Positions 4,371 through 59,765 of a stretch of 64,000 nucleotides of DNA are shown here, one piece after another. The notes under the pieces were generated by a model. That model was not told where the DNA came from. It was given only the letters and a program-made list of their open reading frames with translations, and ran no database searches. Source of the DNA: an uncultured Candidatus Saccharibacteria bacterium. GTDB taxonomy: Bacteria; Patescibacteriota; Minisyncoccia; UBA6257; GWB1-50-10. The stretch covers positions 44,635 through 108,634 of the forward strand of contig CAYXNB010000001.1 of NCBI GenBank assembly GCA_964466475.1. The letters run 5' to 3'. Within the stretch, counting starts at the first letter, position 1. The number at the start of each line of letters is the position of its first letter. The translations under genes and the position numbers were made by a program.

Positions 4371-5984
4371 ATGAGAATACTTACAGGCAAAAAGTGGCGG
4401 GAAGGATATCTGGACTACCACAAAACCAAGGGAGAGCAGAGGATCCAGGTGCTTGCCTTTAAAAATCTGGAAAAGCTGGAGGGTGTGTACCACACGCGGA
4501 CAAAGAGCTTGCGCCTCTTGTGGAACTACTTCCCTGTTGTCGGGCTTGAAGGACTTATTACCAAAACATGGTCCCGTTTGCGGGAAGAGCGAAGAAATGA
4601 AAAATATGTTTCCTGCGGCATCGGAAAAGTTATTGAGACCGGAGAAGTTGTCGGCTTTGTCGCCCCGTGGCACCCGGCCTTGCCGGAACGTATTGTGTTG
4701 CCGGAGGAATTGATTTTCAAACTTGATGTTTTGCCCGAATTACCGGGGGACGTGATCCTGTATGTTTCTTTGATGAAAAACGCGGATTCCTGCTTTCGCC
4801 GGAATGACAAAGGCAAATGGTGGAGTGCTGCGCGGGCGTGGAGCATCCAGTCCGGTATTACTATTACCGATGCAATGCGGGCGAAGCTTGCGGAAGGCGC
4901 GAAAAAAGAAATCGCCGAAACAAACTGGCAATCCGGTCGGCGCGTTGAATCCGCTAATCCGAGTCCGGTTTCCGAGACGAGGGGTTCCTCAACGGATTCG
5001 GGGCAAAACACCAAAAGCGGCGCACTTTTCGGGTACGGCAATTACGCGAAAATAAACATTATTCCCTACTCAAAACCTTTTGTGAATATCCGGGCAGTAC
5101 ATGAAATTGACCCGACCCAGATATTTTTGGAGCAGGGCATCAATCGGTGGGACACATCTCCCCTGCCAAGACAGGATGAAAAACACGACGTGTATTTTGT
5201 CGCGACCTACAACCATACCCATGTTCCGATCACGCTCCACGCCTTGCGGCAAGGCGCGTATGTGGTGGTGGAAAAGCCGGTTGCCATGGATTATGAGGAA
5301 TTGAACGAGTTGGAAAATGCCTTGCGCGCGGCGGGAAGAAAACTTTTTATCGGCTTCCATAAGCGGTACGGACTTTTCAACAAACTCGCGCTTCAGGATC
5401 TGGGCGTTCAATATGGCGAACCGATCTCCTACCACTCAATCGTGTACGAACTTATCCAGCCGGAACTTTTTTGGTACAACTGGCCTGTTTCGCGCAGCAC
5501 CTTTTTCGCGAACGGATGCCATCAGATCGATCACTTTCTTCATCTCAACAACTTTTCCAAGCCAAAGGATTTTGATATCAAACTTTTGGCCGACGGCGCG
5601 GTTGAGGTCTGGATTGAACTGGAAAATGGCGCGGTCTTCACCACGACGTTTAGCGAAAAGGGGGTGTTTCGCGTGGGGCCGCGGGATCATGTGGAATTAA
5701 AAGTACACAATCGGAACGTGCGGATTACGGATGCCATCAAATACCAATCCGAAGACAATTCCCGCATTATCCGCAAAAAACGGATTTTTAAGACCAACAG
5801 TTATAAAGACATGTATCAGACGATCTGCCGGAAGATCGCGGAGAAAAAAGACGGGGACACCATAGAGTCCGTCGTCATCTCAACAAAACTCATGCTGGAT
5901 TTGGAGGAAAAGCTGCAGGCGCAAAAAGGATGGGGCGACAGATATGCCCGCGCCAAAGATGAATTCTGGCGTTATTTCAGGTGA
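4371..5984 (+). CDS. Gfo/Idh/MocA-family NAD(P)-dependent oxidoreductase with about 220-aa uncharacterised N-terminal extension
   Basis: C-terminal half: Rossmann GYGNYAKINIIPY and the EKP motif (VVVEKPVAMDYEEL) typical of Gfo/Idh/MocA sugar oxidoreductases; N-terminal 220 aa has no recognisable domain. Confidence 0.6.
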   Translation: MRILTGKKWREGYLDYHKTKGEQRIQVLAFKNLEKLEGVYHTRTKSLRLLWNYFPVVGLEGLITKTWSRLREERRNEKYVSCGIGKVIETGEVVGFVAPWHPALPERIVLPEELIFKLDVLPELPGDVILYVSLMKNADSCFRRNDKGKWWSAARAWSIQSGITITDAMRAKLAEGAKKEIAETNWQSGRRVESANPSPVSETRGSSTDSGQNTKSGALFGYGNYAKINIIPYSKPFVNIRAVHEIDPTQIFLEQGINRWDTSPLPRQDEKHDVYFVATYNHTHVPITLHALRQGAYVVVEKPVAMDYEELNELENALRAAGRKLFIGFHKRYGLFNKLALQDLGVQYGEPISYHSIVYELIQPELFWYNWPVSRSTFFANGCHQIDHFLHLNNFSKPKDFDIKLLADGAVEVWIELENGAVFTTTFSEKGVFRVGPRDHVELKVHNRNVRITDAIKYQSEDNSRIIRKKRIFKTNSYKDMYQTICRKIAEKKDGDTIESVVISTKLMLDLEEKLQAQKGWGDRYARAKDEFWRYFR

Positions 5985-7129
5985 GCGGCAATCCGTTCCC
6001 CTGCTTTGCCGTCGCCGTAGGGGTTCCCTGCGCGGGACATACGCTCATATATTTCCTTGTTTTCTAAAAGTTCGCGGACGCCTGAGACAACGCTTTCTTT
6101 TTTCACTCCGACGAGCTTGCTTACCCCGGCGTCAATTCCTTCCTGCCGTTCCGTTTTTTCACGCATGACGAGTACGGGCTTCCCAAGCGATGGCGCCTCT
6201 TCCTGAATACCGCCGGAGTCGGTCAAAATGATATGGGCGTTTTTCATTGTTTCCACCATCTTGCCGTACAGCAGGGGCTCGCAGAGTTCTATATTTTTAA
6301 TGTCTTTTAATTCAGCCTTTACAACTTCGCGCACATTCGGGTTCGGGTGTACCGGAAAGATAATTTTTATTTCGGGATAGGTTTTTGCGATTTCTTTTAA
6401 CGCTTCGCAGATTTCTTTCAGCCCCTCGCCGAAACTTTCGCGGCGGTGGGCGGTTACGAGGATGGTTTTCGTAGAAGTGGATATTTTCTCCCGAGGTTCA
6501 ACCTCATTGTTTAGAGGTTGAACCTCTAAACGCGCAACGGAAAGAAGAGCGTCTATGGCCGTGTTCCCCACCACGTGGATATCCTTTTCATCAATGCCTT
6601 CGCGGAGCAGGTTTTGCTTCGCGGATTCCGTAGGCGCGAAATGAATGTCCGCGAGGCGTGCGATTAACTGCCTGTTTATTTCTTCGGGAAATGGAGCCCA
6701 CTTGTCATGAGTGCGGAGGCCTGCTTCCACGTGTGCCACCTTTATCTTGTTCAAAAATGCGAGAAAGGCCGCAAGGAAGGCGGTTAAAGTGTCGCCTTGA
6801 ACAATGACCATATCCGGCTTTTGTTTTTTCAAAAACCTCATATACCGGAGAATTCCCAAGCCGCTTTGGATTCCGGCTATTCCTTTTTGAAAAATTCCGG
6901 CCCCCCGCCCGAACATTCTGTCGCTTATGGAAATCGGAAATACGACATCAGGCTTGATGCCGAAAACCTTGAGCGTTTCCCCCAGCATCGCTCCGTGCTG
7001 GCGAAATACGCACACGCTTGTTTTCATGCCTTCCTTCCGAAGCGCGGATATGACCGGGGCGAGTTTTATGGCTTCAGGGCGAGTACCGATGACTATGCAA
7101 ATATGTTTCATAGTATTATTTTTTCCCAC
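5972..7129 (-). CDS. wecB: UDP-N-acetylglucosamine 2-epimerase (non-hydrolysing)
   Basis: Full-length match to WecB/MnaA pattern: ICIVIGTRPEAIKLAPV N-terminus, HVEAGLRT, DSGGIQEEAPSLGKPVLVMRE C-terminal motif. Confidence 0.9.
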   Translation of the reverse strand: MGKNNTMKHICIVIGTRPEAIKLAPVISALRKEGMKTSVCVFRQHGAMLGETLKVFGIKPDVVFPISISDRMFGRGAGIFQKGIAGIQSGLGILRYMRFLKKQKPDMVIVQGDTLTAFLAAFLAFLNKIKVAHVEAGLRTHDKWAPFPEEINRQLIARLADIHFAPTESAKQNLLREGIDEKDIHVVGNTAIDALLSVARLEVQPLNNEVEPREKISTSTKTILVTAHRRESFGEGLKEICEALKEIAKTYPEIKIIFPVHPNPNVREVVKAELKDIKNIELCEPLLYGKMVETMKNAHIILTDSGGIQEEAPSLGKPVLVMREKTERQEGIDAGVSKLVGVKKESVVSGVRELLENKEIYERMSRAGNPYGDGKAGERIAAHLK

Positions 7130-52602: not shown

Positions 52603-52839
52603 TTACGCGATTGCGAGCATTTTTGACTTTCTCGTGAATTCTCTTATATTTTTTTCTTCTTTTTTGAAGTCGTCAAAACTAAATTCGTAAAAACTTACGC
52701 GCACCATTTCTCCTTTTTTGTCATAGTCAATCACCGCGTTTCCCTGAATGTCCGAATCCGCGCTTTTTTCGTTTTTCACAATTATCGAAAGGACTTTATT
52801 TTTTTTGTCATATTCAATTTTTGGTTTTTTTTGCTTCAT
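52603..52839 (-). CDS. DUF2283-family small protein (putative antitoxin of DUF4258/DUF2283 pair)
   Basis: 78 aa; IEYDKKNKVLSIIV...NAVIDYDKKGEMVRV follows DUF2283 Y-D...D-x-L-x-I...iDyDe-x-G pattern; ATGA-coupled to upstream DUF4258 gene. Confidence 0.5.
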   Translation of the reverse strand: MKQKKPKIEYDKKNKVLSIIVKNEKSADSDIQGNAVIDYDKKGEMVRVSFYEFSFDDFKKEEKNIREFTRKSKMLAIA

Positions 52840-53147
52840 ATATATTTTTTTATTTTTGATGTTTCGATCACCGTAATGATTCTACATGTTTTCCCGCGCC
52901 ATTCTCCGGCTACCAGCAATAATCTTTCTTTCCCGTTCCTCCTGTACAATCTTTTGAATAAGAACCTTTTATTTTCGTCATAAAGTGTTTCTGTCGGAAA
53001 TTCAATGGTCTTTTTTACGTTCTCTTCCATGATTCCGCGCTCTTTCATTCGCGCTTTCGCGTGTGAAGTAATGATATATTTCACTACCCTAGTATACCTT
53101 ATTTTCCTAGAAATTGGAACCCCCCTACAAATCCGCGGGGCGCTCAC
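52836..53147 (-). CDS. DUF4258-family protein (putative toxin component)
   Basis: IITSHAKARMKERGIMEENV matches DUF4258 N-terminal i-x-t-x-HA...R-x-x-eRgI signature; start codon uncertain (GTG alternatives). Confidence 0.5.
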   Translation of the reverse strand: MSAPRICRGVPISRKIRYTRVVKYIITSHAKARMKERGIMEENVKKTIEFPTETLYDENKRFLFKRLYRRNGKERLLLVAGEWRGKTCRIITVIETSKIKKYI

Positions 53148-54429
53148 CGAGACGAATTTTTATTTCTAACACCTGATTTCCCCTCCGTACCTTCAGCGCA
53201 ATTGTTTCCCCCACGTCGTATTTTTGAATTATGGTCGCGAATGATTTTTTCTCTACTTTTTCTCCGTTTACCTCCAAAATAATGTCCTCGGCCCGCAGGC
53301 CCGCACGCGAGGCCGGAGTGTCAGGATAGACCGCGGGTCCCTCTTCGGATCCGCGAAGCACGATGCCGTATTCCACGGGCATACTTTGCTTTTTCGCGAG
53401 TTCGGGCGTGATCGGAACATACCGGATTCCCACATACGGAGTTTTGATGGTTCCTGTTGTTTTTACGGACTGGATGTCGCGCTTTGCCTGATTTATGGGA
53501 ATCGCAAAACCTATGTTTTGCGCGCCGGAGACCATGGCGGTATTTACGCCTATCACCTCTCCCTTCAGGTTCAAAAGCGGGCCGCCCGAGTTTCCGGAAT
53601 TTATCGCCGCGTCCGTCTGGATCAGCCCCTCAATGCGCTCGCTAAATCCCCCGCCGGAGGCGGTAATGTCGCGCGCGAGGCCGGAGACAACGCCGAGCGA
53701 TACGGTGTTTCTGAACTCTCCAAGCGCGTTTCCTATGGCTATGGCGGTCTGGCCGAGCTTTACCGCGTCCGAATCCCCAAGGCGGGCGGGCACGAGCCCC
53801 CGCGTTTCTATTTTTATAACCGCGAGGTCGAGGATCGGGTCGCGGGCAAGGACTTTCGCTTCATGCTTTTTTCCGTCGTTGGTAAAGACCGTGTATTCCG
53901 CGCTCTCGTCCAAGACCACGTGCTTGTTCGTTACGATAAGCCCGTCTTCTGAAATAATAAATCCCGATCCGCCCCCGACTTCCCGTTTTTCCGTTCCTCT
54001 CTGGCAGTTTGTTTCATATTGGAATCCTCCGCCGAAAAAATCCTGAAACTCCGGCGGCAGATCGCCCCAGGGGTTGTACCGGCACCGCTCGATTACGGGC
54101 ACGTCTTTTGATACGGCAATAGAAACAACCGAAGGCGAGGCCTTTTCAACCGCGCTCGTTACGGCCTCTTCATAATCAATCGCGGGTTTGTAGAGAGTTA
54201 CGGGTTTTTGTTCTTCCTTTTGTTCTTTATCCTTAATCCTTGATCCCTGATCCTCCGTGCTTGTCGCCGCGGGCGCGGATATTCCCTTAAAGAAGTTTTT
54301 AATGTCGTCCAGAATTCCGGCTTCCGCCCTATGCGGGAAGAAGCCGTTTATGGCGGCTCCTCCCAGAATTACACTCGCTATAGTTAGAACAAAAAATTTT
54401 CTCAACATGTCGAAAATCTCTAATCTCAA
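53125..54429 (-). CDS. htrA: HtrA/DegP-family periplasmic serine endoprotease with PDZ domain
   Basis: Catalytic triad context VTNKHVV (His), D (LAVIKIE), GNSGGPLLNLKGEVIGVNTA (Ser); C-terminal PDZ; N-terminal signal anchor. Confidence 0.9.
   Translation of the reverse strand: MRLEIFDMLRKFFVLTIASVILGGAAINGFFPHRAEAGILDDIKNFFKGISAPAATSTEDQGSRIKDKEQKEEQKPVTLYKPAIDYEEAVTSAVEKASPSVVSIAVSKDVPVIERCRYNPWGDLPPEFQDFFGGGFQYETNCQRGTEKREVGGGSGFIISEDGLIVTNKHVVLDESAEYTVFTNDGKKHEAKVLARDPILDLAVIKIETRGLVPARLGDSDAVKLGQTAIAIGNALGEFRNTVSLGVVSGLARDITASGGGFSERIEGLIQTDAAINSGNSGGPLLNLKGEVIGVNTAMVSGAQNIGFAIPINQAKRDIQSVKTTGTIKTPYVGIRYVPITPELAKKQSMPVEYGIVLRGSEEGPAVYPDTPASRAGLRAEDIILEVNGEKVEKKSFATIIQKYDVGETIALKVRRGNQVLEIKIRLGERPADL
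54226..54253. repeat. Heptamer tandem repeat (CTTRATC x4) inside htrA coding region
   Basis: ctttatc cttaatc cttgatc cctgatc; encodes DQGSRIKDKE on coding strand; same repeat family as 57168..57200. Confidence 0.7.
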
Positions 54430-54533
54430 AACCCTAATCTCTAAACAATCTCAAATATCAAAACTCAAAAACGTTTTTGACATTTGGGTTTTGAATTTGT
54501 TTAGAGATTAGAAATTAGGATTTAGAGATTATC
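54413..54533. repeat. About 120-bp imperfect palindrome centred on perfect CAAAAACGTTTTTG core, between SIMPL gene stop and htrA start
   Basis: Arms rich in TAATCTC/GAGATTA units: left aaaatctctaatctcaaaaccctaatctctaaacaatctcaaatatcaaaactcaaaaacg, right mirror cgtttttgacatttgggttttgaatttgtttagagattagaaattaggatttagagatta. Confidence 0.7.
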
Positions 54534-55332
54534 GTATCTCGTACGTCAACGTAACGCTCACTTGCACATCCTCGCTTCCGGGCTCGATCGAGGGCGATGG
54601 CGCACTCTCTGCCATGTCCCCTCCCATGCCAAGCGCCTCTCCCTTTGCATAATAGATTGGCGGGTATCCTCCTGCTGATTCATAAATCGAGATTAGTTTG
54701 CCGACGCGAAATCCTCCGGCTTTGGCGATCTTCTCCGCCTTTTTCTGCGCTTTTTCTATGGCCTCGGCGCGAGCGTCGTCCTGCACGCTTGTCGGGTCAT
54801 CAATGGTAAAGTTCAAACTCGAGGCCTGGTTTGCTCCGCTTTTCACCACGCCGGAGACGATGTCTCCTGCTTTCGCGAAATCGCGGATTTTCACGCTCGC
54901 GGACTGGGTGATGGTATATCCCACGATCTTTGGCGGCGGGCAGGGCTCGGCTTTTCGCGAGTCAGCGCCATATATCACCGGGCCGCATGAATAATATTCA
55001 TATCTCGGGTTTACGCTGTACTGGCTTGTTTTTATGTCTTCCTTTTTTACGCCCTGTTCCTTCAAAAAGGCGATCGCCTTATTCATTTTTTCCGTATTCT
55101 CGGTCTGAAGTTCGGCGAGTTTTTCTCCGCCCTCGGTAATGACGCTAAAGGTAAACTCCGCCACGTCCGGCACGCCGGTCGCTTTTCCTTCCGCGCTTAC
55201 GGAAAAACTGCGAAGCGATCCGGGATTAATGGATTTCCCGACCGACCCGGCAATACTCATAATGCCGTACCCGAATGCCAACACTCCCACGATGAGCGAT
55301 ATTCCCAAATAGTTTTTTATTTTTTCATTCAT
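54529..55332 (-). CDS. SIMPL-domain (DUF541) periplasmic protein
   Basis: N-terminal TM anchor; VSAEGKATGVPDVAEFTFSVI...SQYSVNPRYEY pattern of SIMPL/26-kDa periplasmic immunogenic protein family. Confidence 0.7.
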   Translation of the reverse strand: MNEKIKNYLGISLIVGVLAFGYGIMSIAGSVGKSINPGSLRSFSVSAEGKATGVPDVAEFTFSVITEGGEKLAELQTENTEKMNKAIAFLKEQGVKKEDIKTSQYSVNPRYEYYSCGPVIYGADSRKAEPCPPPKIVGYTITQSASVKIRDFAKAGDIVSGVVKSGANQASSLNFTIDDPTSVQDDARAEAIEKAQKKAEKIAKAGGFRVGKLISIYESAGGYPPIYYAKGEALGMGGDMAESAPSPSIEPGSEDVQVSVTLTYEIR

Positions 55333-55445
55333 AGTATTTATGTGATTAAAGTGGCCACTTTGTTCCTCACATATCTATCATACGATAGATTTTTTATTTT
55401 GTAACGCCTTTGAATTTCAAAGGGGGAGACAATGCTCCCCCAAGA

Positions 55446-55658
55446 TTACAACCGAATCGTCCACCCCCGCACAGAGAAGGTTCGCGCCGATGGGCTCCGC
55501 CGCCATCGGCGAATCCGCCACCGCCACGAGGGCGGCTCGACCCACCGCCCGGAATCTTCGTTCCAGATTCCCTCGACGCCAAGCAGGCGTTCCACGAGGG
55601 AAAACGGGAGTTTTGTGAGTTCTCTAATTTCATCGAGAGAGAATTCTTTGTTATTCAT
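55446..55658 (-). CDS. Small hypothetical protein (70 aa), possible HTH N-terminus, Arg/Trp-rich tail
   Basis: Good SD (GAAAGGAG 8 nt upstream); N-terminus FSLDEIRELTKLPFSLVERLLGV resembles short HTH/excisionase-like segment; sits in an atypically GC-rich 200-bp patch. Confidence 0.3.
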   Translation of the reverse strand: MNNKEFSLDEIRELTKLPFSLVERLLGVEGIWNEDSGRWVEPPSWRWRIRRWRRSPSARTFSVRGWTIRL

Positions 55659-55721
55659 AAGAATTCTCCTTTCTTCCTTTGTTAGTTTAACACAACGCTT
55701 TTTGTTTTAGAGAGGTACGGA

Positions 55722-56231
55722 TTATTGCGTAATTTCCGGGTGTTCCGCCAAATACCGGTCTCGTACGAATATTCCGAGAGTCGGCGCGGTATTTTCCATG
55801 CTTCTGTCGCGATTGTTGTACAAAAAAATTTTCAAAAACTGCATGTACGATTTATCATAAAGCGCGTGTATGGATTTAATGGCTGCTGCCTCCACATCAT
55901 ATTTAACTTGTGGATTTTCTCTATCTATGAATTCAAAAAACTCCTTCTTATTCTTTTCGAAGACATTTTCAAAACCGATATTTTTTATGAATTCCCTTCC
56001 TTTTTCCGTTAAATTGAGTGGGCTTAATGTTTGTAGTTCGTTTGGGTCAAATTTTTCGTGATATCGAGTAAGATAATTTGCCACGATTTGAACATTGTGT
56101 TTTATTTTTGTTGTTGTTTTCTCCAATTCGGATAAAATTTGAAGTTTTTTTCCAATATAAATAAGGGCCGTGACTATAGACGGAATTCCGATTGTGATTA
56201 TGATAGTGATTACAATATCCAACCATTTCAT
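55722..56231 (-). CDS. Hypothetical membrane-anchored protein, AT-rich gene
   Basis: 169 aa, N-terminal TM (IVITIIITIGIPSIVTALIYIG); about 38-40% GC vs about 55% in flanks. Confidence 0.45.
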   Translation of the reverse strand: MKWLDIVITIIITIGIPSIVTALIYIGKKLQILSELEKTTTKIKHNVQIVANYLTRYHEKFDPNELQTLSPLNLTEKGREFIKNIGFENVFEKNKKEFFEFIDRENPQVKYDVEAAAIKSIHALYDKSYMQFLKIFLYNNRDRSMENTAPTLGIFVRDRYLAEHPEITQ

Positions 56232-56250
56232 ATATTTATATTATAGCACG

Positions 56251-57459
56251 TTATGACACCAGAGCATTTTTGATTATTTTCCCTATTTTATGAGCATCTT
56301 TCTTCGTTGTTTCCCGCCCCAAACTGAAGCGGATACTCCTTCGGGCAATATCTTCCGGAATACCCATAGCAAGGAGCGCGTACGAGGCCTCTTGCGAGCG
56401 CGTGGAGCAGGCCGCGCCGGAGGAGACGGCAACTCCAAGGGCATCAAGGCGGGCGACCAGGTTTTTTGAGGCGTTTGGAAATGCGGCGTTTAGGATATGC
56501 GGGAGCGTATTTTTATTTGGCGTATTTCTTACGGCCCCTGGCACTGCTTTTTTAATTTTTTTCCACAGGCATTCTCTTAATTTTCCCAAGCGCTTTGCTT
56601 CTTTTGCCTGGATTTTTATTGCCTCTTCCGCCGCCCTTACAAACCCCACGATCGCCGGAATGTTTTCCGTGCCGGAACGAAAGCCGAATTCCTGACCGCC
56701 TCCGGTTACGATAGGATTTAGGGGATAGCCACTAGCCACTAGCGCGCCTACTCCTTTTGGTCCGTAGATTTTGTGCGAAGAAATGGTCATCATGTCCACA
56801 CCAAGTGTTTTTATGTCGCAGTCCAGATACTGGAAGGCCTGGACAGCGTCGGTGTGTACGAGCGGGTAATTGGTAATTGGTAATTGGTAATTGTTTGTTT
56901 CTTGCTTCTTCTTTCTTGTTTCTTCGCGAAACTCGCGAACCGTCTTCGCGATTTCACGTATCGGCTGAATCGTCCCCGCCACATTATTTCCATACATCAC
57001 GGACACAAAAATGGTGTTTTCATCGAGTGCGGCTTCCAGTTTTTTCAAATCCACCACTCCATTTTTGTCCACCGGAATTTCAACTATTTCCACACCTTCC
57101 CGCGCTAAATCCCGCGCGGTTTCCAAAACGGACTCGTGCTCAACCGCGGAAACAATAATTTTCGGTTCCTTAATCCTTAATCCTTGATCCTTGATCCTTG
57201 CTATCGTGCCGCGAAGCGCGAGATTGTTCGCCTCTGTCGCGGATCCGGCAAAAATCACCTGTCGAAACTCCGCTCCTACGAGACGCGCCATTTTTTCGCG
57301 CGCCATATCAAGCGCGGCCGAGGCCTCCTGCCCGAATGAGTGGAGCGAACTCGGATTCCCGAACCGCGCCGCAAAATACGGCTCCATTTCTTTTCTTGCC
57401 GCCTTTGAAACAGGAGTGGTTGCCGCGTGGTCGAGGTAGATTCTTTCTTGCCTTTTCAT
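56251..57459 (-). CDS. iscS: Cysteine desulfurase (class V aminotransferase, IscS/NifS-like) with internal low-complexity insertion
   Basis: LDHAATTP, PLP-Lys context TISSHKIYGPKGVGAL, catalytic Cys loop SSGAACSTRS; insertion EETRKKKQETNNYQLPITNYPL encoded by GGTAATT x4 tandem repeat. Confidence 0.88.
   Translation of the reverse strand: MKRQERIYLDHAATTPVSKAARKEMEPYFAARFGNPSSLHSFGQEASAALDMAREKMARLVGAEFRQVIFAGSATEANNLALRGTIARIKDQGLRIKEPKIIVSAVEHESVLETARDLAREGVEIVEIPVDKNGVVDLKKLEAALDENTIFVSVMYGNNVAGTIQPIREIAKTVREFREETRKKKQETNNYQLPITNYPLVHTDAVQAFQYLDCDIKTLGVDMMTISSHKIYGPKGVGALVASGYPLNPIVTGGGQEFGFRSGTENIPAIVGFVRAAEEAIKIQAKEAKRLGKLRECLWKKIKKAVPGAVRNTPNKNTLPHILNAAFPNASKNLVARLDALGVAVSSGAACSTRSQEASYALLAMGIPEDIARRSIRFSLGRETTKKDAHKIGKIIKNALVS
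56865..56892. repeat. Perfect heptamer tandem repeat GGTAATT x4 inside cysteine desulfurase gene
   Basis: ggtaattggtaattggtaattggtaatt; unit not a multiple of 3. Confidence 0.85.
57168..57200. repeat. Heptamer tandem repeat (CCTTRAT x4.7) inside cysteine desulfurase gene
   Basis: ccttaat ccttaat ccttgat ccttgat ccttg; encodes KDQGLRIKEPK; same family as repeat in htrA. Confidence 0.8.
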
Positions 57460-57497
57460 GAGCCCACATTAAATCATGGCAAGAGAAAAATCTATAT

Positions 57498-57995
57498 CTA
57501 CTTACGTTTTGCGTTCTGAACTTTTTCCTTCTTGGTTTCTTCCACGATTTTATAGAGATCCATCTTTCGCAAAATAACGAGGAGGAGCGTCATGCCGATC
57601 GCGCTTATCGCGGCAAAAGCCGTGAGCCCGATACCTGCCAGCATTCCGATCGCGGCAACGAACCAGATGGATGCCGCGGTAGTTAGCCCGTGCACGCGCG
57701 GCCCCTGGTGGATGATGATGCCCGCGCCCAAAAATCCGATACCGACCACTATGTTCGAGATGATGCGGAGAGCCGAACTGTTTTGCACAATTGCCTGCAT
57801 AGCAACCCCTTCGTTCGGAGTAATAAGGTAGGGCAGCGCGATACTCCCGATGGTAAAAAGCGCGGCGCCCGCGGAAACCACGATGTCCGTGCGGATGCCG
57901 GCTTCTTTGCCGACCACCTCCCGCTCCCATCCCACGATCGCGCCCAAGGCTATCGCGACTCCCAGGCGTATTATCATTTCTTCAAGCGTAAGCAT
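57498..57995 (-). CDS. mgtC: MgtC/SapB-family membrane protein
   Basis: LGVAIALGAIVGWEREVVGKEAGIRTDIVVSAGAALFT matches MgtC N-terminal signature; 165 aa, 4-5 TM. Confidence 0.75.
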   Translation of the reverse strand: MLTLEEMIIRLGVAIALGAIVGWEREVVGKEAGIRTDIVVSAGAALFTIGSIALPYLITPNEGVAMQAIVQNSSALRIISNIVVGIGFLGAGIIIHQGPRVHGLTTAASIWFVAAIGMLAGIGLTAFAAISAIGMTLLLVILRKMDLYKIVEETKKEKVQNAKRK

Positions 57996-58045
57996 GATTC
58001 TATTATACCATTTACTATTTTCTATTGTTTTGTATGATACATGTC

Positions 58046-58702
58046 ATGTTTAAATTACCCATTCCCCCCCGCGACATCCTCGTCTCCCTGAGGCGCGGCT
58101 TTCGTTTTAAGAGCCCGCTTTTCTATACCTTTGTCGCGATTCTTTTTACCGCGGCCATTATTCTCGCTTCCCATCTTTTTTCCCGCGCGGAGTTTGCGGC
58201 GGAGATTCCTCCGGAGTTTCTTGAAGCGCGGCGCGACGCCTCCCTGACCAGCAAGGAGATCGTCGTCCTTACCGAATCCGTAAACAAAGCGGTGCGCGAG
58301 ATAAATCTGTTAGATGTCGCGGAACAGCGGCCAAGGGCGATGGAGGTCGTGGAACTGGCAAAGACGGACATCGCGAGCGCGAGTTCGCGCGCCTTTGATC
58401 TTTCACGCCACCTTGAACGCATGACCCAGTCGCTTTCTTCCCTTTCCTCCGGCTCTGCCCAGCGGCTCGCGTATGCCGCGATCGCGACCGAACTTTCGCT
58501 GGTCAGCGAATTTCTTACCTATACCGAAAACTTAAACGACTTTCTCGCGAGCATCGAGCGGTCGTTTACCCGCGGCTCCACGCGCGAGGAGCAAGAGGCG
58601 ATCTCAAAAGCGTTGCATGAAGTAAACGAAAGCGCGAAAACCATCAACCGCTTAAACGACGAGTTTCTCGCCAAAATGAAACTCTTTGATACTTCGCTCT
58701 AG
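58046..58702 (+). CDS. Hypothetical membrane-anchored protein (possibly coiled-coil)
   Basis: One N-terminal TM (LFYTFVAILFTAAIILASHLF) then Ala/Glu/Leu-rich soluble region; start chosen at MFKLPIPP. Confidence 0.4.
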   Translation: MFKLPIPPRDILVSLRRGFRFKSPLFYTFVAILFTAAIILASHLFSRAEFAAEIPPEFLEARRDASLTSKEIVVLTESVNKAVREINLLDVAEQRPRAMEVVELAKTDIASASSRAFDLSRHLERMTQSLSSLSSGSAQRLAYAAIATELSLVSEFLTYTENLNDFLASIERSFTRGSTREEQEAISKALHEVNESAKTINRLNDEFLAKMKLFDTSL

Positions 58703-58723
58703 TTTTGATAAGTTTAGGATATT

Positions 58724-58795
58724 GCCCCCGTAGCACAATGGATAGTGCAGCGGCCTTCTAAGCCGCGTATGTAGGTTCGATTCCTGCCGGGGGTG
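58724..58795 (+). tRNA. tRNA-Arg (anticodon TCT)
   Basis: Cloverleaf: acceptor GCCCCCG/CGGGGGT, D-arm GCAC-AATGGATA-GTGC, anticodon stem GCGGC/GCCGC with loop CTTCTAA, T-arm GTAGG-TTCGATT-CCTGC; CCA not encoded. Confidence 0.85.
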
Positions 58796-58928
58796 CGTTT
58801 TAAATTGTTTCTCTTTTCTTTTCGTGATACCTTTTTATTGGTCTTCTATATTCGTTTTCCCTCCCTCCTGCTCTGACTCCGACACACGCGATGGCGGGAG
58901 GGAATCTGCGGGCCATGCCCGCCCGAGA

Positions 58929-58963
58929 GGCGTTTCGCGCTAGCGAACGCCTCTTTGTTTTTA
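58929..58963 (+). terminator. Hairpin (GGCGTTTCGCG-CTA-GCGAACGCC) followed by T-rich run
   Basis: Interrupted 10-bp stem then tctttgtttttatt; about 130 nt downstream of tRNA-Arg. Confidence 0.4.
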
Positions 58964-58983
58964 TTGTGCCGCGGGAGGGAATT
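58964..58983. repeat. 20-bp perfect direct copy of the tRNA-Phe 3' end region (ttgtgccgcgggagggaatt = 59131..59150)
   Basis: Exact 20/20 identity 167 bp from the genuine tRNA 3' end; additional degenerate copies of GGGAGGGAAT at about 58893 (direct) and about 59076 (inverted). Confidence 0.75.
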
Positions 58984-59097
58984 CTTCTCCCCTGTCGCGA
59001 ACTAAAGTTCGCTCCTCCTCCAAAGCCGGGCGCACTCGCTCCATCGTGCCCCGCATGCGCGAGTGTCGCCTTCAATTCCCTCCCGCATGGATACACA

Positions 59098-59126
59098 AAA
59101 AGAACTCGCGGGCGAGTTCTTTTTGT
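59098..59126. terminator. Bidirectional rho-independent terminator (AGAACTCG-CCCG-CGAGTTCT flanked by A5 and T5)
   Basis: 8-bp GC-containing stem, 4-nt loop, A-run upstream and T-run downstream on both strands; lies just 3' of the minus-strand tRNA-Phe gene. Confidence 0.65.
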
Positions 59127-59133
59127 GCACTTG

Positions 59134-59459
59134 TGCCGCGGGAGGGAATTGAACCCCCGACGCCAGCCTCTTCCAAGGCGATGTTTCCCGAATTACTCCG
59201 GGGTTCGGACTATATCATCCCCGCCTTCCGTATTCATGTTTCTCATCGAAGGCGGGGTCGGGCGCTATTTGCGAGTTTATTGTTGGGACTCACTCGCTAG
59301 TCTCTACACCTTCCCCGCAACCTTTGCCCTGCGGGGCTTGGCTCGGGATTGTCCCGCCTTGGCGGGATTTCCCCGAATTCACCCGATTTTTCTCATTCCG
59401 CATTTCTGCGAAGGGCCCCAAAGATTTAGGGCTGCGCTCTACCACTGAGCTACCGCGGC
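59134..59459 (-). tRNA. Intron-containing tRNA gene; exons assemble a canonical tRNA whose anticodon loop reads CUGAAGA, tentatively tRNA-Phe (GAA)
   Basis: 5' exon about 59427..59459: GCCGCGG-TA-GCTC-AGTGGTA-GAGC-G-CAGCC-CT; 3' exon 59134..59173: GAAGA-GGCTG-GCGTC-GGGGG-TTCAATT-CCCTC-CCGCGGC-A; all four stems base-pair; A73 discriminator; interrupted after U33 by 253 nt. Confidence 0.7.
59174..59426 (-). ncRNA. Group I self-splicing intron (253 nt) in tRNA anticodon loop
   Basis: Intron begins AAAUCUUUGGGGCC: IGS GGGGC pairs with exon-end GCCCU giving the U-G wobble at the 5' splice site (P1); R-like GGUGUAGAGACUAGC and S-like GAUGAUAUAGUCCGAAC elements form P7; P/Q-like GAAUUCGGGGAAAUCCCGCC and CAAUCCCGAG; terminal G before exon 2. 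Confidence 0.7.
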
Positions 59460-59765
59460 ATATTTAGTTTTTCTTCTGCGCTTCGCTTATTCCCTACTCC
59501 ACGATGCCTTCGGCTGCGCTCTTCCCGGGCGCGCCTTCCTTTATTATAGTATTACAAAAAATTTTTTTTGTACATTGTGCGGCTTTTGTACGTTGCGCGG
59601 CGCGGCCTCGCTTCTCTTCTTGTCTTACTTATGACGTCCTCAAACTGTCCACATATGCAGAAATTTTGAGGACGGCGCAAATTCAGCGTCGCTCTTTTTG
59701 CAACTTCTCCCCTCTTCTTGTATTCTTTTTCTGTACTCTTTTTCACTCCTTTTCACTCCATTTTT

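Follow-up and report, generated by a model that had tools for sequence, protein, structure and literature searches.

Heptamer arrays in frame within two conserved genes

We analyzed a 64-kb stretch of DNA (64,000 nucleotides [nt] of contig CAYXNB010000001.1, called the window from here on) from an uncultured bacterium of the Parcubacteria group of the candidate phyla radiation (CPR/Patescibacteria), and found head-to-tail arrays of 7-nt units lying in frame inside two conserved genes, one for an HtrA/DegP-type serine protease and the other for a NifS/IscS-type cysteine desulfurase. We think it fairly probable that these arrays arose in place, by slippage or tandem duplication of a local 7-mer, and not by mobile insertion, because their units match the flanking codons, their copy numbers cluster near four, in-frame stop codons are avoided and a change of three units retains the reading frame.

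When 34 Parcubacteria orthologs of the desulfurase (378 to 493 aa) were aligned, length differences were concentrated at four sites, numbered 1 to 4 here, of which the window has arrays at sites 1 and 2 and, weakly, at site 3. Among named relatives, the one nearest to the desulfurase (67% identity) belongs to a Candidatus Wildermuthbacteria metagenome-assembled genome (MAG; locus L002). The two genes and the period-7 tracts, as called by Tandem Repeats Finder (TRF), are as follows.

53125..54408, minus strand: HtrA/DegP-type serine protease gene with Trypsin_2 and PDZ domains, assigned by domain matches and 71% identical to the L002 ortholog
56251..57459, minus strand: NifS/IscS-type cysteine desulfurase gene (Aminotran_5), best PDB matches cysteine desulfurases (E=4e-83)
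54225..54254, minus strand: heptamer array in the HtrA gene (period 7, 4.3 copies, 82% matches)
57167..57200, minus strand: site-1 heptamer array of the desulfurase (4.9 copies, 96% matches)
56865..56893, minus strand: site-2 array of the desulfurase, GGTAATT (coding strand AATTACC; 4.1 copies, 100% matches)
56895..56924, minus strand: second site-2 array, degenerate (GAAGAAA/CAAGAAA; plus strand TTGTTTC; 4.3 copies)
56711..56745, minus strand: weak degenerate period-7 tract at site 3 of the desulfurase (TAGCCAC x2.6 at 56726-56743 alone), included in the array set tentatively
58000..58026, no strand: weak intergenic period-7 tract (CTATTTA x3.7) between the MgtC gene and the open reading frame (ORF) 58025-58702

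On the plus strand the HtrA array reads CTTTATC CTTAATC CTTGATC CCTGATC CT, which on the coding strand is GATCAGG GATCAAG GATTAAG GATAAAG, translated as DQGSRIKDK. The site-1 array (plus strand TCCTTAA TCCTTAA TCCTTGA TCCTTGA TCCTTG; coding strand GATCAAG GATCAAG GATTAAG GATTAAG) gives (R)IKDQGLRIK, the AATTACC array NYQLPITNY and the site-3 tract LVASGYPLNP. Directly upstream of the AATTACC array, the degenerate second array of site 2 starts at the conserved F-R-E codons and is translated as EETRKKKQET. The HtrA and desulfurase arrays and the site-3 tract are all in frame, in two minus-strand ORFs.

An earlier note on this DNA had described in-frame arrays of about four copies in htrA and the desulfurase, together with a perfect GGTAATT x4 array in the latter. 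Sequence and TRF calls agree with it on both counts, and its peptides (TEDQGSRIKDKE, ARIKDQGLRIKEPK, and NNYQLPITNYPL) are those encoded. It had also taken the HtrA and desulfurase arrays for the same repeat; the unit and the frame are as it stated, but the two sequences differ at 2 of 30 positions. Two arrays called by TRF (56895-56924 and 56726-56743) had gone unreported. An independent lag-7 scan agrees with the TRF calls.

Period 7 in the window and in orthologous genes

To scan for periodicity we required 17 or more matches at a given lag within windows of 21 positions and compared the counts with shuffles. Over the 64 kb, lag 7 gave 5 tracts against 0.03 expected, while lags 4 to 6, 8, 9, 11 to 13, and 15 gave none; lag 10 gave 2 and lag 14, the double of 7, gave 3, with none expected for either. 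Searches with two consecutive units as the query and dinucleotide-preserving shuffles as the null pointed the same way, with 7 matches to CCTTRATCCTTRAT at up to 2 mismatches (1.5 expected; none of 100 shuffles reached 7) and 5 matches to GGTAATTGGTAATT (0.5 expected). At a laxer threshold six tracts were detected, four of them in frame within the two ORFs and all within 54.2 to 58.0 kb (54218-58033), and the other 60 kb held none even at this threshold. By our own estimate, the probability that four independent loci fall by chance inside 3.8 kb is <1e-3. Period 7 also prevailed in 860 kb of array-bearing loci from unrelated genomes, with 265 tracts compared to 52 of period 6 and 18 of period 8.

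We then compared the DNA of seven further desulfurase orthologs, which were partly picked for their long inserts, defining insert DNA against a compact ortholog of 378 aa. Pooled over the eight orthologous genes, insert DNA reached a self-identity of 0.53 for lag 7 and 0.45 for lag 14, the core value being 0.24, and had a G+C content of 0.38 versus 0.47 in the core. The selected orthologs carried 3 to 6 period-7 tracts per gene versus about 0.1 per kb in their flanks, a contrast biased by the choice of orthologs with long inserts; at the two unselected loci, the desulfurase gene holds 3 of the 5 period-7 tracts in the window and 2 of 5 in L002. The idea that period-7 repeats recur in this lineage, raised in the earlier note, is borne out by these values. 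A metagenome scan for close relatives of the desulfurase retrieved seven loci, none above 50% identity, of which L124 to L127 had no period-7 tracts.

The inserts differ in how fast they change. Site 2 of L002 carries another heptamer, TCATTAG x4, versus AATTACC plus GAAGAAA in the window, and orthologs 79% identical in the core conserve only 2 of 27 positions at site 2 and 6 of 42 at site 3. Site 1, however, is roughly as conserved as the core in related orthologs. By these comparisons, turnover is therefore fast at sites 2 and 3, with site 1 being steadier. The AATTACC unit (LPITNYQ peptide) was found at sites 2, 3, and 4 of other orthologs as well as in another gene of L134, and the ELRIKN peptide (GAATTAAG) at site 2 of several orthologs.

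Derived state and location in protein loops

Relative to solved desulfurases, the window protein has 5 additional residues at site 1 and 18 at site 2. Because both the solved desulfurases and the compact Parcubacteria orthologs lack these segments, the arrays are, on the evidence of the alignments, derived. Among the 120 best homologs, 87 exceed the minimum length by at least 8 residues at site 1, 81 at site 2, 42 at site 3, and 29 at site 4. In the AlphaFold 2 (AF2) model of the desulfurase (predicted local distance difference test [pLDDT], 86.6), site 1 falls where helix 74-91 ends and in the loop 92-99 preceding strand 100-104, and site 2 at the end of helix 167-188 and in the loop 189-199 preceding strand 200-204, where the pLDDT is about 71. 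Going by fold type I architecture, these helix-to-strand connections should be away from the pyridoxal phosphate (PLP) site. The HtrA array encodes part of the linker between the N-terminal hydrophobic (signal or transmembrane) segment and the protease domain, which spans 18 to 38 residues and differs in length and sequence across the four orthologs compared. The view of the earlier note that the arrays are insertions accommodated in loops thus agrees with the orthologs, the model, and the variable linker.

One could take the segments for ordinary ancestral protein sequence that just looks repetitive, or for an assembly artifact, and the site-1 peptide is indeed conserved with the nearest ortholog, with inserts at this site changing at about the pace of the core. 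Yet outgroup structures and compact orthologs lack the segments, 7-nt periodicities of 100% and 96% are unexpected for ordinary coding sequence, and the same architecture appears in many independent assemblies (NCBI, ENA, JGI, and Logan). Ortholog comparison and independent assemblies largely refute this explanation, which we regard as very improbable.

Origin of the arrays

The feature most informative about origin is the phase of the units relative to their flanks: lineage by lineage, the first repeat unit consists of the lineage's own conserved boundary codons. At site 1 the window reads GCA AG|G ATC AAG|GAT CAA G|GA TTA AG|G ATT AAG|GAA, and L136 reads AAA CG|T ATC AAG|TAT CAA G|TA TCA AG|T ATC AAG|AGG (TATCAAG x4), so that the first base of the unit tracks the synonymous third position of the Arg codon before it (G after AGG, T after CGT). 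The corresponding openings are AG|A ATT AAG|... in L002, A|GA TTT AA|... in L133, leading to GATTTAG units, and GGT TTT A|... in L135, leading to GGTTTTA x4 from K-G-F-R codons. At site 2, the window AATTACC array closes, with its last unit, within conserved Tyr-Pro codons (AAT TAC CCG), and a GAATTTA array in L135 opens inside conserved Glu-Phe-Arg codons.

Copy numbers and reading frames complement this picture. The site-1 arrays of the window and L136 (R-I-K seed) and the window AATTACC array each amount to a seed plus exactly 21 nt, or seven codons. Among 35 period-7 arrays in nine genes, 21 have 3.9 to 5.0 copies and none has 5.1 to 8.3, while in other genomes GATYAAG arrays that are non-coding span anything from 28 to 155 nt. 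Had the consensus unit been kept, 17 of 29 in-frame tracts would hold an in-frame stop; it is exactly at that codon that the actual sequence departs from the consensus, as in the HtrA array, which has GATAAAG where GATTAAG would read TAA. As the earlier note had pointed out, heptamers cannot slip singly in frame: a one-unit slip truncates the desulfurase at residue 92-99 or 214-245, and a three-unit slip keeps the frame.

We infer the following process. Replication slippage or tandem duplication would reiterate a local 7-mer bordering a permissive protein loop. Since seven is not a multiple of three, the states able to persist in an essential gene would be those with 3n added units and no stop codon in the frame used, the smallest being one seed unit plus three copies (21 nt, seven codons). 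This would yield arrays of about four copies and peptides with a period of seven residues (DQGLRIK, QLPITNY), later modified by point mutation and occasional slippage. The added residues, which in HtrA fall in an unstructured linker, are probably neutral passengers and not functional motifs.

Several points weigh against this proposal. In an essential ORF, duplicating 7 nt for the first time would shift the frame, so that a multi-unit (+21 nt) or templated step must be assumed. The HtrA and desulfurase GATYAAG arrays share both the unit and the order of its variants (28 of 30 positions), which independent origin would not predict, and units such as AATTACC, GATTTAG, and GAATTAAG recur at different loops and genes across lineages. 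Many ortholog inserts are two-armed palindromes resembling a dispersed intergenic element (see below), which simple slippage does not yield. That all window tracts are confined to 3.8 kb out of 64 kb is a hint of a local process, and the peak at four to five copies may derive partly from the TRF detection threshold. Finally, length polymorphism was not seen in the sequences available for comparison. The Logan assembly of run SRR5011273 is identical to window positions 54502-59306, with the same copy numbers in the desulfurase arrays (the HtrA array lies outside this stretch), four members of the P0002 cluster have identical arrays, and cluster look-ups for the nearest ortholog gave no array-length variants. 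In these data, where the nearest relative is 67% identical, the earlier suggestion that the arrays may be hotspots of slipped-strand variation did not find support.

With in situ slippage as the favored process, a broader proposal can be sketched, about which we are tentative and lean slightly to the doubtful side. In Parcubacteria, and perhaps in the CPR more widely, slippage of heptamers seeded by boundary codons could systematically, and across the lineage, make the surface loops of conserved proteins longer, seven codons at a time. Certain arrays would become two-armed palindromes indistinguishable from the dispersed intergenic hairpin element, and the desulfurase would be a recurrent hotspot, with four loops turning over faster than about 20% protein divergence. 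Such a process would be a CPR counterpart of the in-frame palindromic elements of Rickettsia and a source of frameshift-prone sites in essential genes.

Heptanucleotide repeats have been treated as an intergenic curiosity of unknown origin, and here they are found within the catalytic domain of enzymes that are conserved and probably essential. This amounts to a natural experiment, with the reading frame as the filter on the products of repeat formation. The main value of the finding lies in the flank-codon signature and the "one plus three" copy number, both of which bear on how heptamer repeats arise. If the pattern holds across Parcubacteria, it would help to account for the often longer loops of CPR proteins relative to their homologs; it could also provide strain-typing markers and flag sites where gene callers and assemblers produce split or spurious small ORFs. 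No medical or biotechnological consequence is evident.

Relative age of the HtrA and desulfurase arrays

The site-1 array is also present in the L002 ortholog, at the same place and with a 22-nt identical run, and is thus old, not a recent insertion. This run is the longest between the two desulfurase genes, exceeding that at the catalytic-cysteine motif (18 nt), with third codon positions being 50% identical between the window genome and L002. However, ClpB has identical runs of 20 to 26 nt in the same genome pair and, for this reason, the 22-nt run is suggestive but not decisive.

The length of that run could also be explained if the arrays were selected nucleic acid signals, either with the AAGGA core as a Shine-Dalgarno-like pause site or as a protein-binding or structure-forming motif, the peptide being incidental. 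Arrays of (AAGGATY)n found in many phyla, often just upstream of start codons, would fit as well. Nevertheless, the ClpB runs make 22 nt unexceptional, other lineages have different units at the same loop and many orthologs none, and the HtrA array is missing from the nearest relative, all of which makes a signal of this kind improbable.

The HtrA array is 2,944 nt away from the site-1 array, on the same strand, and the two differ in reading frame; aligned in register they are identical at 28 of 30 positions, with the same C-C-T-T variant order. As the HtrA array is absent from the L002 ortholog, it appears from this comparison to be the younger of the two. Given the identity, the shared site-1 copy, and the missing HtrA copy in L002, the HtrA array may be a copy of the desulfurase array, the older one. 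The alternative is growth from a similar Ile-Lys seed; L002 has GAA ATA AAA G there.

A palindromic heptamer element and the mobile or templated alternative

A different heptamer structure occupies the spacer between the SIMPL and HtrA genes.

54411..54534, no strand: intergenic palindrome of 124 nt with 62-nt arms, made of heptamer-like units (TCTCTAA/TTAGAGA)

It spans the entire spacer, one arm overlapping the SIMPL stop codon and the other stopping 3 nt before the HtrA ATG, with the two junctions at 54405-54411 and 54529-54534. Its RNA has a minimum free energy of -47.1 kcal/mol (z = -7.0), and such a stable hairpin abutting the translation start may affect HtrA expression. The palindrome is absent from L002, where the SIMPL-HtrA spacer has 27 nt. 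A scan of 54200-54700 for terminators and promoters gave no intrinsic terminator and so does not support its being a canonical one, and a search against Rfam returned only plant miRNA precursor models far below their gathering scores, a likeness that reflects generic AT-rich hairpins.

We built an nhmmer profile from this element and five in-frame ortholog inserts. The element itself was matched with E=3e-19, and there were independent matches in L002, L133, and L136. Homologs sit in frame at desulfurase sites 2 and 3 in L131, L132, L133, and L136 (E 1e-28 to 7e-9), and further copies were located between genes in L002 and L133 and in frame in L136 (E 7e-9 to 2e-4), while 860 kb from other phyla gave only two marginal matches (E ~0.002). 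Judging from these profile matches, there is a dispersed family of heptamer palindromes able to sit in frame. Many ortholog inserts have the corresponding two-armed structure, with an array, a short loop, and the reverse-complement array. The peptide profile of the element matched about 110 proteins in public metagenomes, mostly short spurious ORFs, without retrieving the known long carriers.

The earlier note had proposed that the arrays are small mobile or templated micro-insertions. In the fuller form considered here, they would be pieces of a dispersed heptamer-repeat or palindromic family, similar to Rickettsia palindromic elements (RPEs) or MITEs (miniature transposable elements with inverted repeats), placed there by transposition or when microhomology primes a switch of template to an ectopic array. 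The 124-nt palindrome, with its intergenic and in-frame homologs, and the metagenome proteins matched by its peptide profile speak for such a family. So do the clustering of the window tracts, the 28 of 30 positions shared by two neighboring arrays on the same strand, one of which the nearest ortholog lacks, and the turnover of sites 2 and 3 between orthologs 79% identical in the core. In addition, near-identical alleles of one population differ in their inserts at sites 2 and 4 (clusters P0020 and P0103, where alleles at least 95% identical elsewhere carry wholly different inserts). This replacement, however, reaches flanking residues, which looks like homologous recombination and not insertion. 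Moreover, the window arrays (54225-54254, 57167-57200, and 56865-56893) are one-armed, with no inverted partner, palindromy being found only in the separate 54411-54534 element, and the profile of the element does not match them at E<0.01. The first unit of the arrays is made of conserved boundary codons specific to the lineage, matching even the synonymous third base of the Arg codon before it. Neither terminal inverted repeats nor target duplications nor any associated transposase was noticed in the flanks, although no systematic search for them was made. We therefore consider this explanation unlikely overall, if still worth keeping in mind. For the desulfurase arrays, mobility fits less well than growth in place from flanking codons; templating may still account for the HtrA array alone, considering its 28/30 identity and its absence from L002.

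Comparison with known repeat classes

In prokaryotes, heptanucleotide units are the commonest among long simple sequence repeats (SSRs), and polymerase slippage or a polymerase footprint has been proposed as the reason, according to the account of Mrazek 2007 in passages of PMC4692102 and PMC4679880; the same passages place long SSRs mainly in intergenic regions, with only multiple-of-three units being common in coding DNA. Like these, the arrays described here are head-to-tail 7-nt repeats of many sequences in which period 7 is over-represented and for which slippage is proposed. Unlike them, four of the six window tracts are in frame inside conserved enzymes, with about four copies (seed plus three). 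In structure they are heptanucleotide long SSRs, though not in the usual intergenic location, and so represent a known repeat class in an unusual coding context. We found no paper on heptamer repeats in CPR/Patescibacteria in the literature searched.

The GATYAAG unit had been suggested to form a mini-repeat family peculiar to this lineage, which proved not to be the case. In a collection of species-representative genomes, (CCTTRAT)3 occurs in at least 120 stretches (>120 among the matches listed; about 2 expected by chance, by our own estimate), with hosts in Bacteroidota, Desulfobacterota, Verrucomicrobiota, Omnitrophota, Elusimicrobiota, Firmicutes, a cyanobacterium, and CPR Uhrbacteria among those matches. 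In other phyla the listed arrays are mostly outside ORFs or in 5' leaders, and open frames spanning them, considered as possible in-frame inserts, turned out to be mostly 5' leaders. Since the neighborhoods of (CCTTRAT)n arrays contain about 140 other period-7 tracts with about 100 different units, GATYAAG is one of many units, and it is the coding context that is unusual. Several non-CPR genomes (Cloacimonadota, Bacteroidota, and others; e.g., L013, L066, L038, and L113) have 7 to 10 heptamer arrays of different units within 8 kb. (AAGGATY)n is often located just upstream of start codons (e.g., L021, L022, and L044), recalling the published TAACTGA repeats.

TAACTGA repeats occur in marine Beggiatoaceae, cyanobacteria, and some Bacteroidetes in 2 to 6 or more copies and are mostly located just upstream of start codons. 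Their orientation in ORFs is limited by stop codons on one strand, and the occasional copies within ORFs encode LSVISYQ, mostly at the periphery or termini of proteins (PMC4679880). A favored heptamer, the restriction by stop codons, and a peptide with a period of seven residues are common to both systems. The unit and the lineage differ, and here it is internal loops in a conserved enzyme's catalytic domain that carry the arrays. The heptamers GGGAATC and GGGGAYT of Xanthomonas and Nostoc and the cyanobacterial short tandemly repeated repetitive (STRR) sequences are lineage-enriched, sometimes form inverted, hairpin-forming pairs, and vary extensively in length between related genomes (PMC4692102). 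These repeats are G-rich, prone to G-quadruplexes, and intergenic, whereas the arrays here are AT-rich and coding, in a CPR bacterium. STRR units include CCCCAGT, TTGGTCA, and CAACAGT and are known from heterocystous cyanobacteria. Membership in this class was rejected, the units here being GATYAAG, AATTACC, and GAAGAAA in Parcubacteria/CPR.

RPEs are palindromes of 100 to 150 nt with a defined sequence and no 7-nt periodicity. Ogata et al. reportedly described them in 2000 as occurring in frame in genes for conserved proteins, where their surface position is compatible with function. The family of the 54411-54534 element and the ortholog inserts are like them in being small repeated elements in frame inside conserved genes, while the window arrays are 28 to 34 nt, one-armed, and tandem, with units that match the flanks. 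An RPE- or MITE-type element is accordingly an unlikely assignment for the arrays, which have no palindrome and in which no termini were noticed, again without a systematic search. RPEs are also mentioned in passages of PMC1779305 and PMC10969869. We rejected a phase-variable contingency locus, as the arrays are short (about 4 copies) and in housekeeping genes, no polymorphism was seen, and a one-unit slip truncates the enzyme.

A second kind of insert was observed at the same desulfurase loops. It is GC-rich, 40 to 55 residues long (..TGRSSAPAAEAALGLSP..SETFRTK..), and without 7-nt periodicity, and was found at site 1 in P0039, P0067, P0087 (L132 1849-1974), P0090, and P0120, also at site 1 in P0035 and P0109, and at site 2 in P0103 (L134 4664-4798) and P0119. 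These inserts are common to orthologs only about 66% identical in the core. Inverted repeats resembling hairpins are present in their DNA, and the inserts may form a family of RPE-like elements. Several long contigs have the desulfurase split into two ORFs exactly at insert sites (P0131/P0133 and P0135/P0124), which could be real frameshifts at repeats or assembly errors.

Gene neighborhood

The desulfurase has the PLP-lysine motif SSHKIYGPKG and the catalytic-cysteine motif SSGAACS. The HtrA gene probably starts at the ATG at 54408, the mechanical ORF listing opening at TTG 54429. The gene order MgtC, desulfurase, SIMPL, HtrA ... ClpB is syntenic with L002. The gap between the desulfurase and SIMPL genes (55333-56250) measures about 0.9 kb in the window versus a 24-nt spacer in L002, and contains two minus-strand ORFs, one of 169 aa (55722-56231) with no Pfam match and another of 70 aa (55446-55658) with a helix-turn-helix-like N terminus and unusually GC-rich surroundings. 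At the same position (5565-6222), L131 has a toxin-antitoxin pair with ribbon-helix-helix (RHH) and PIN domains, for which reason the gap looks like a variable cassette slot.

The window also contains an intact tRNA-Arg(TCT) gene (58724-58796, plus strand) and a minus-strand tRNA gene (59140-59476) with a full-length group I intron (59186-59437) in its anticodon loop. The intron matches Rfam RF00028 with 84.4 bits (gathering score, 50), and when it is removed in silico ARAGORN calls tRNA-Phe(GAA). In the interval between HtrA and ClpB (52603-53147, minus strand), two small overlapping ORFs correspond to the DUF4258 and DUF2283 pair of L002, with synteny kept, and this pair is likely a toxin-antitoxin-like module.

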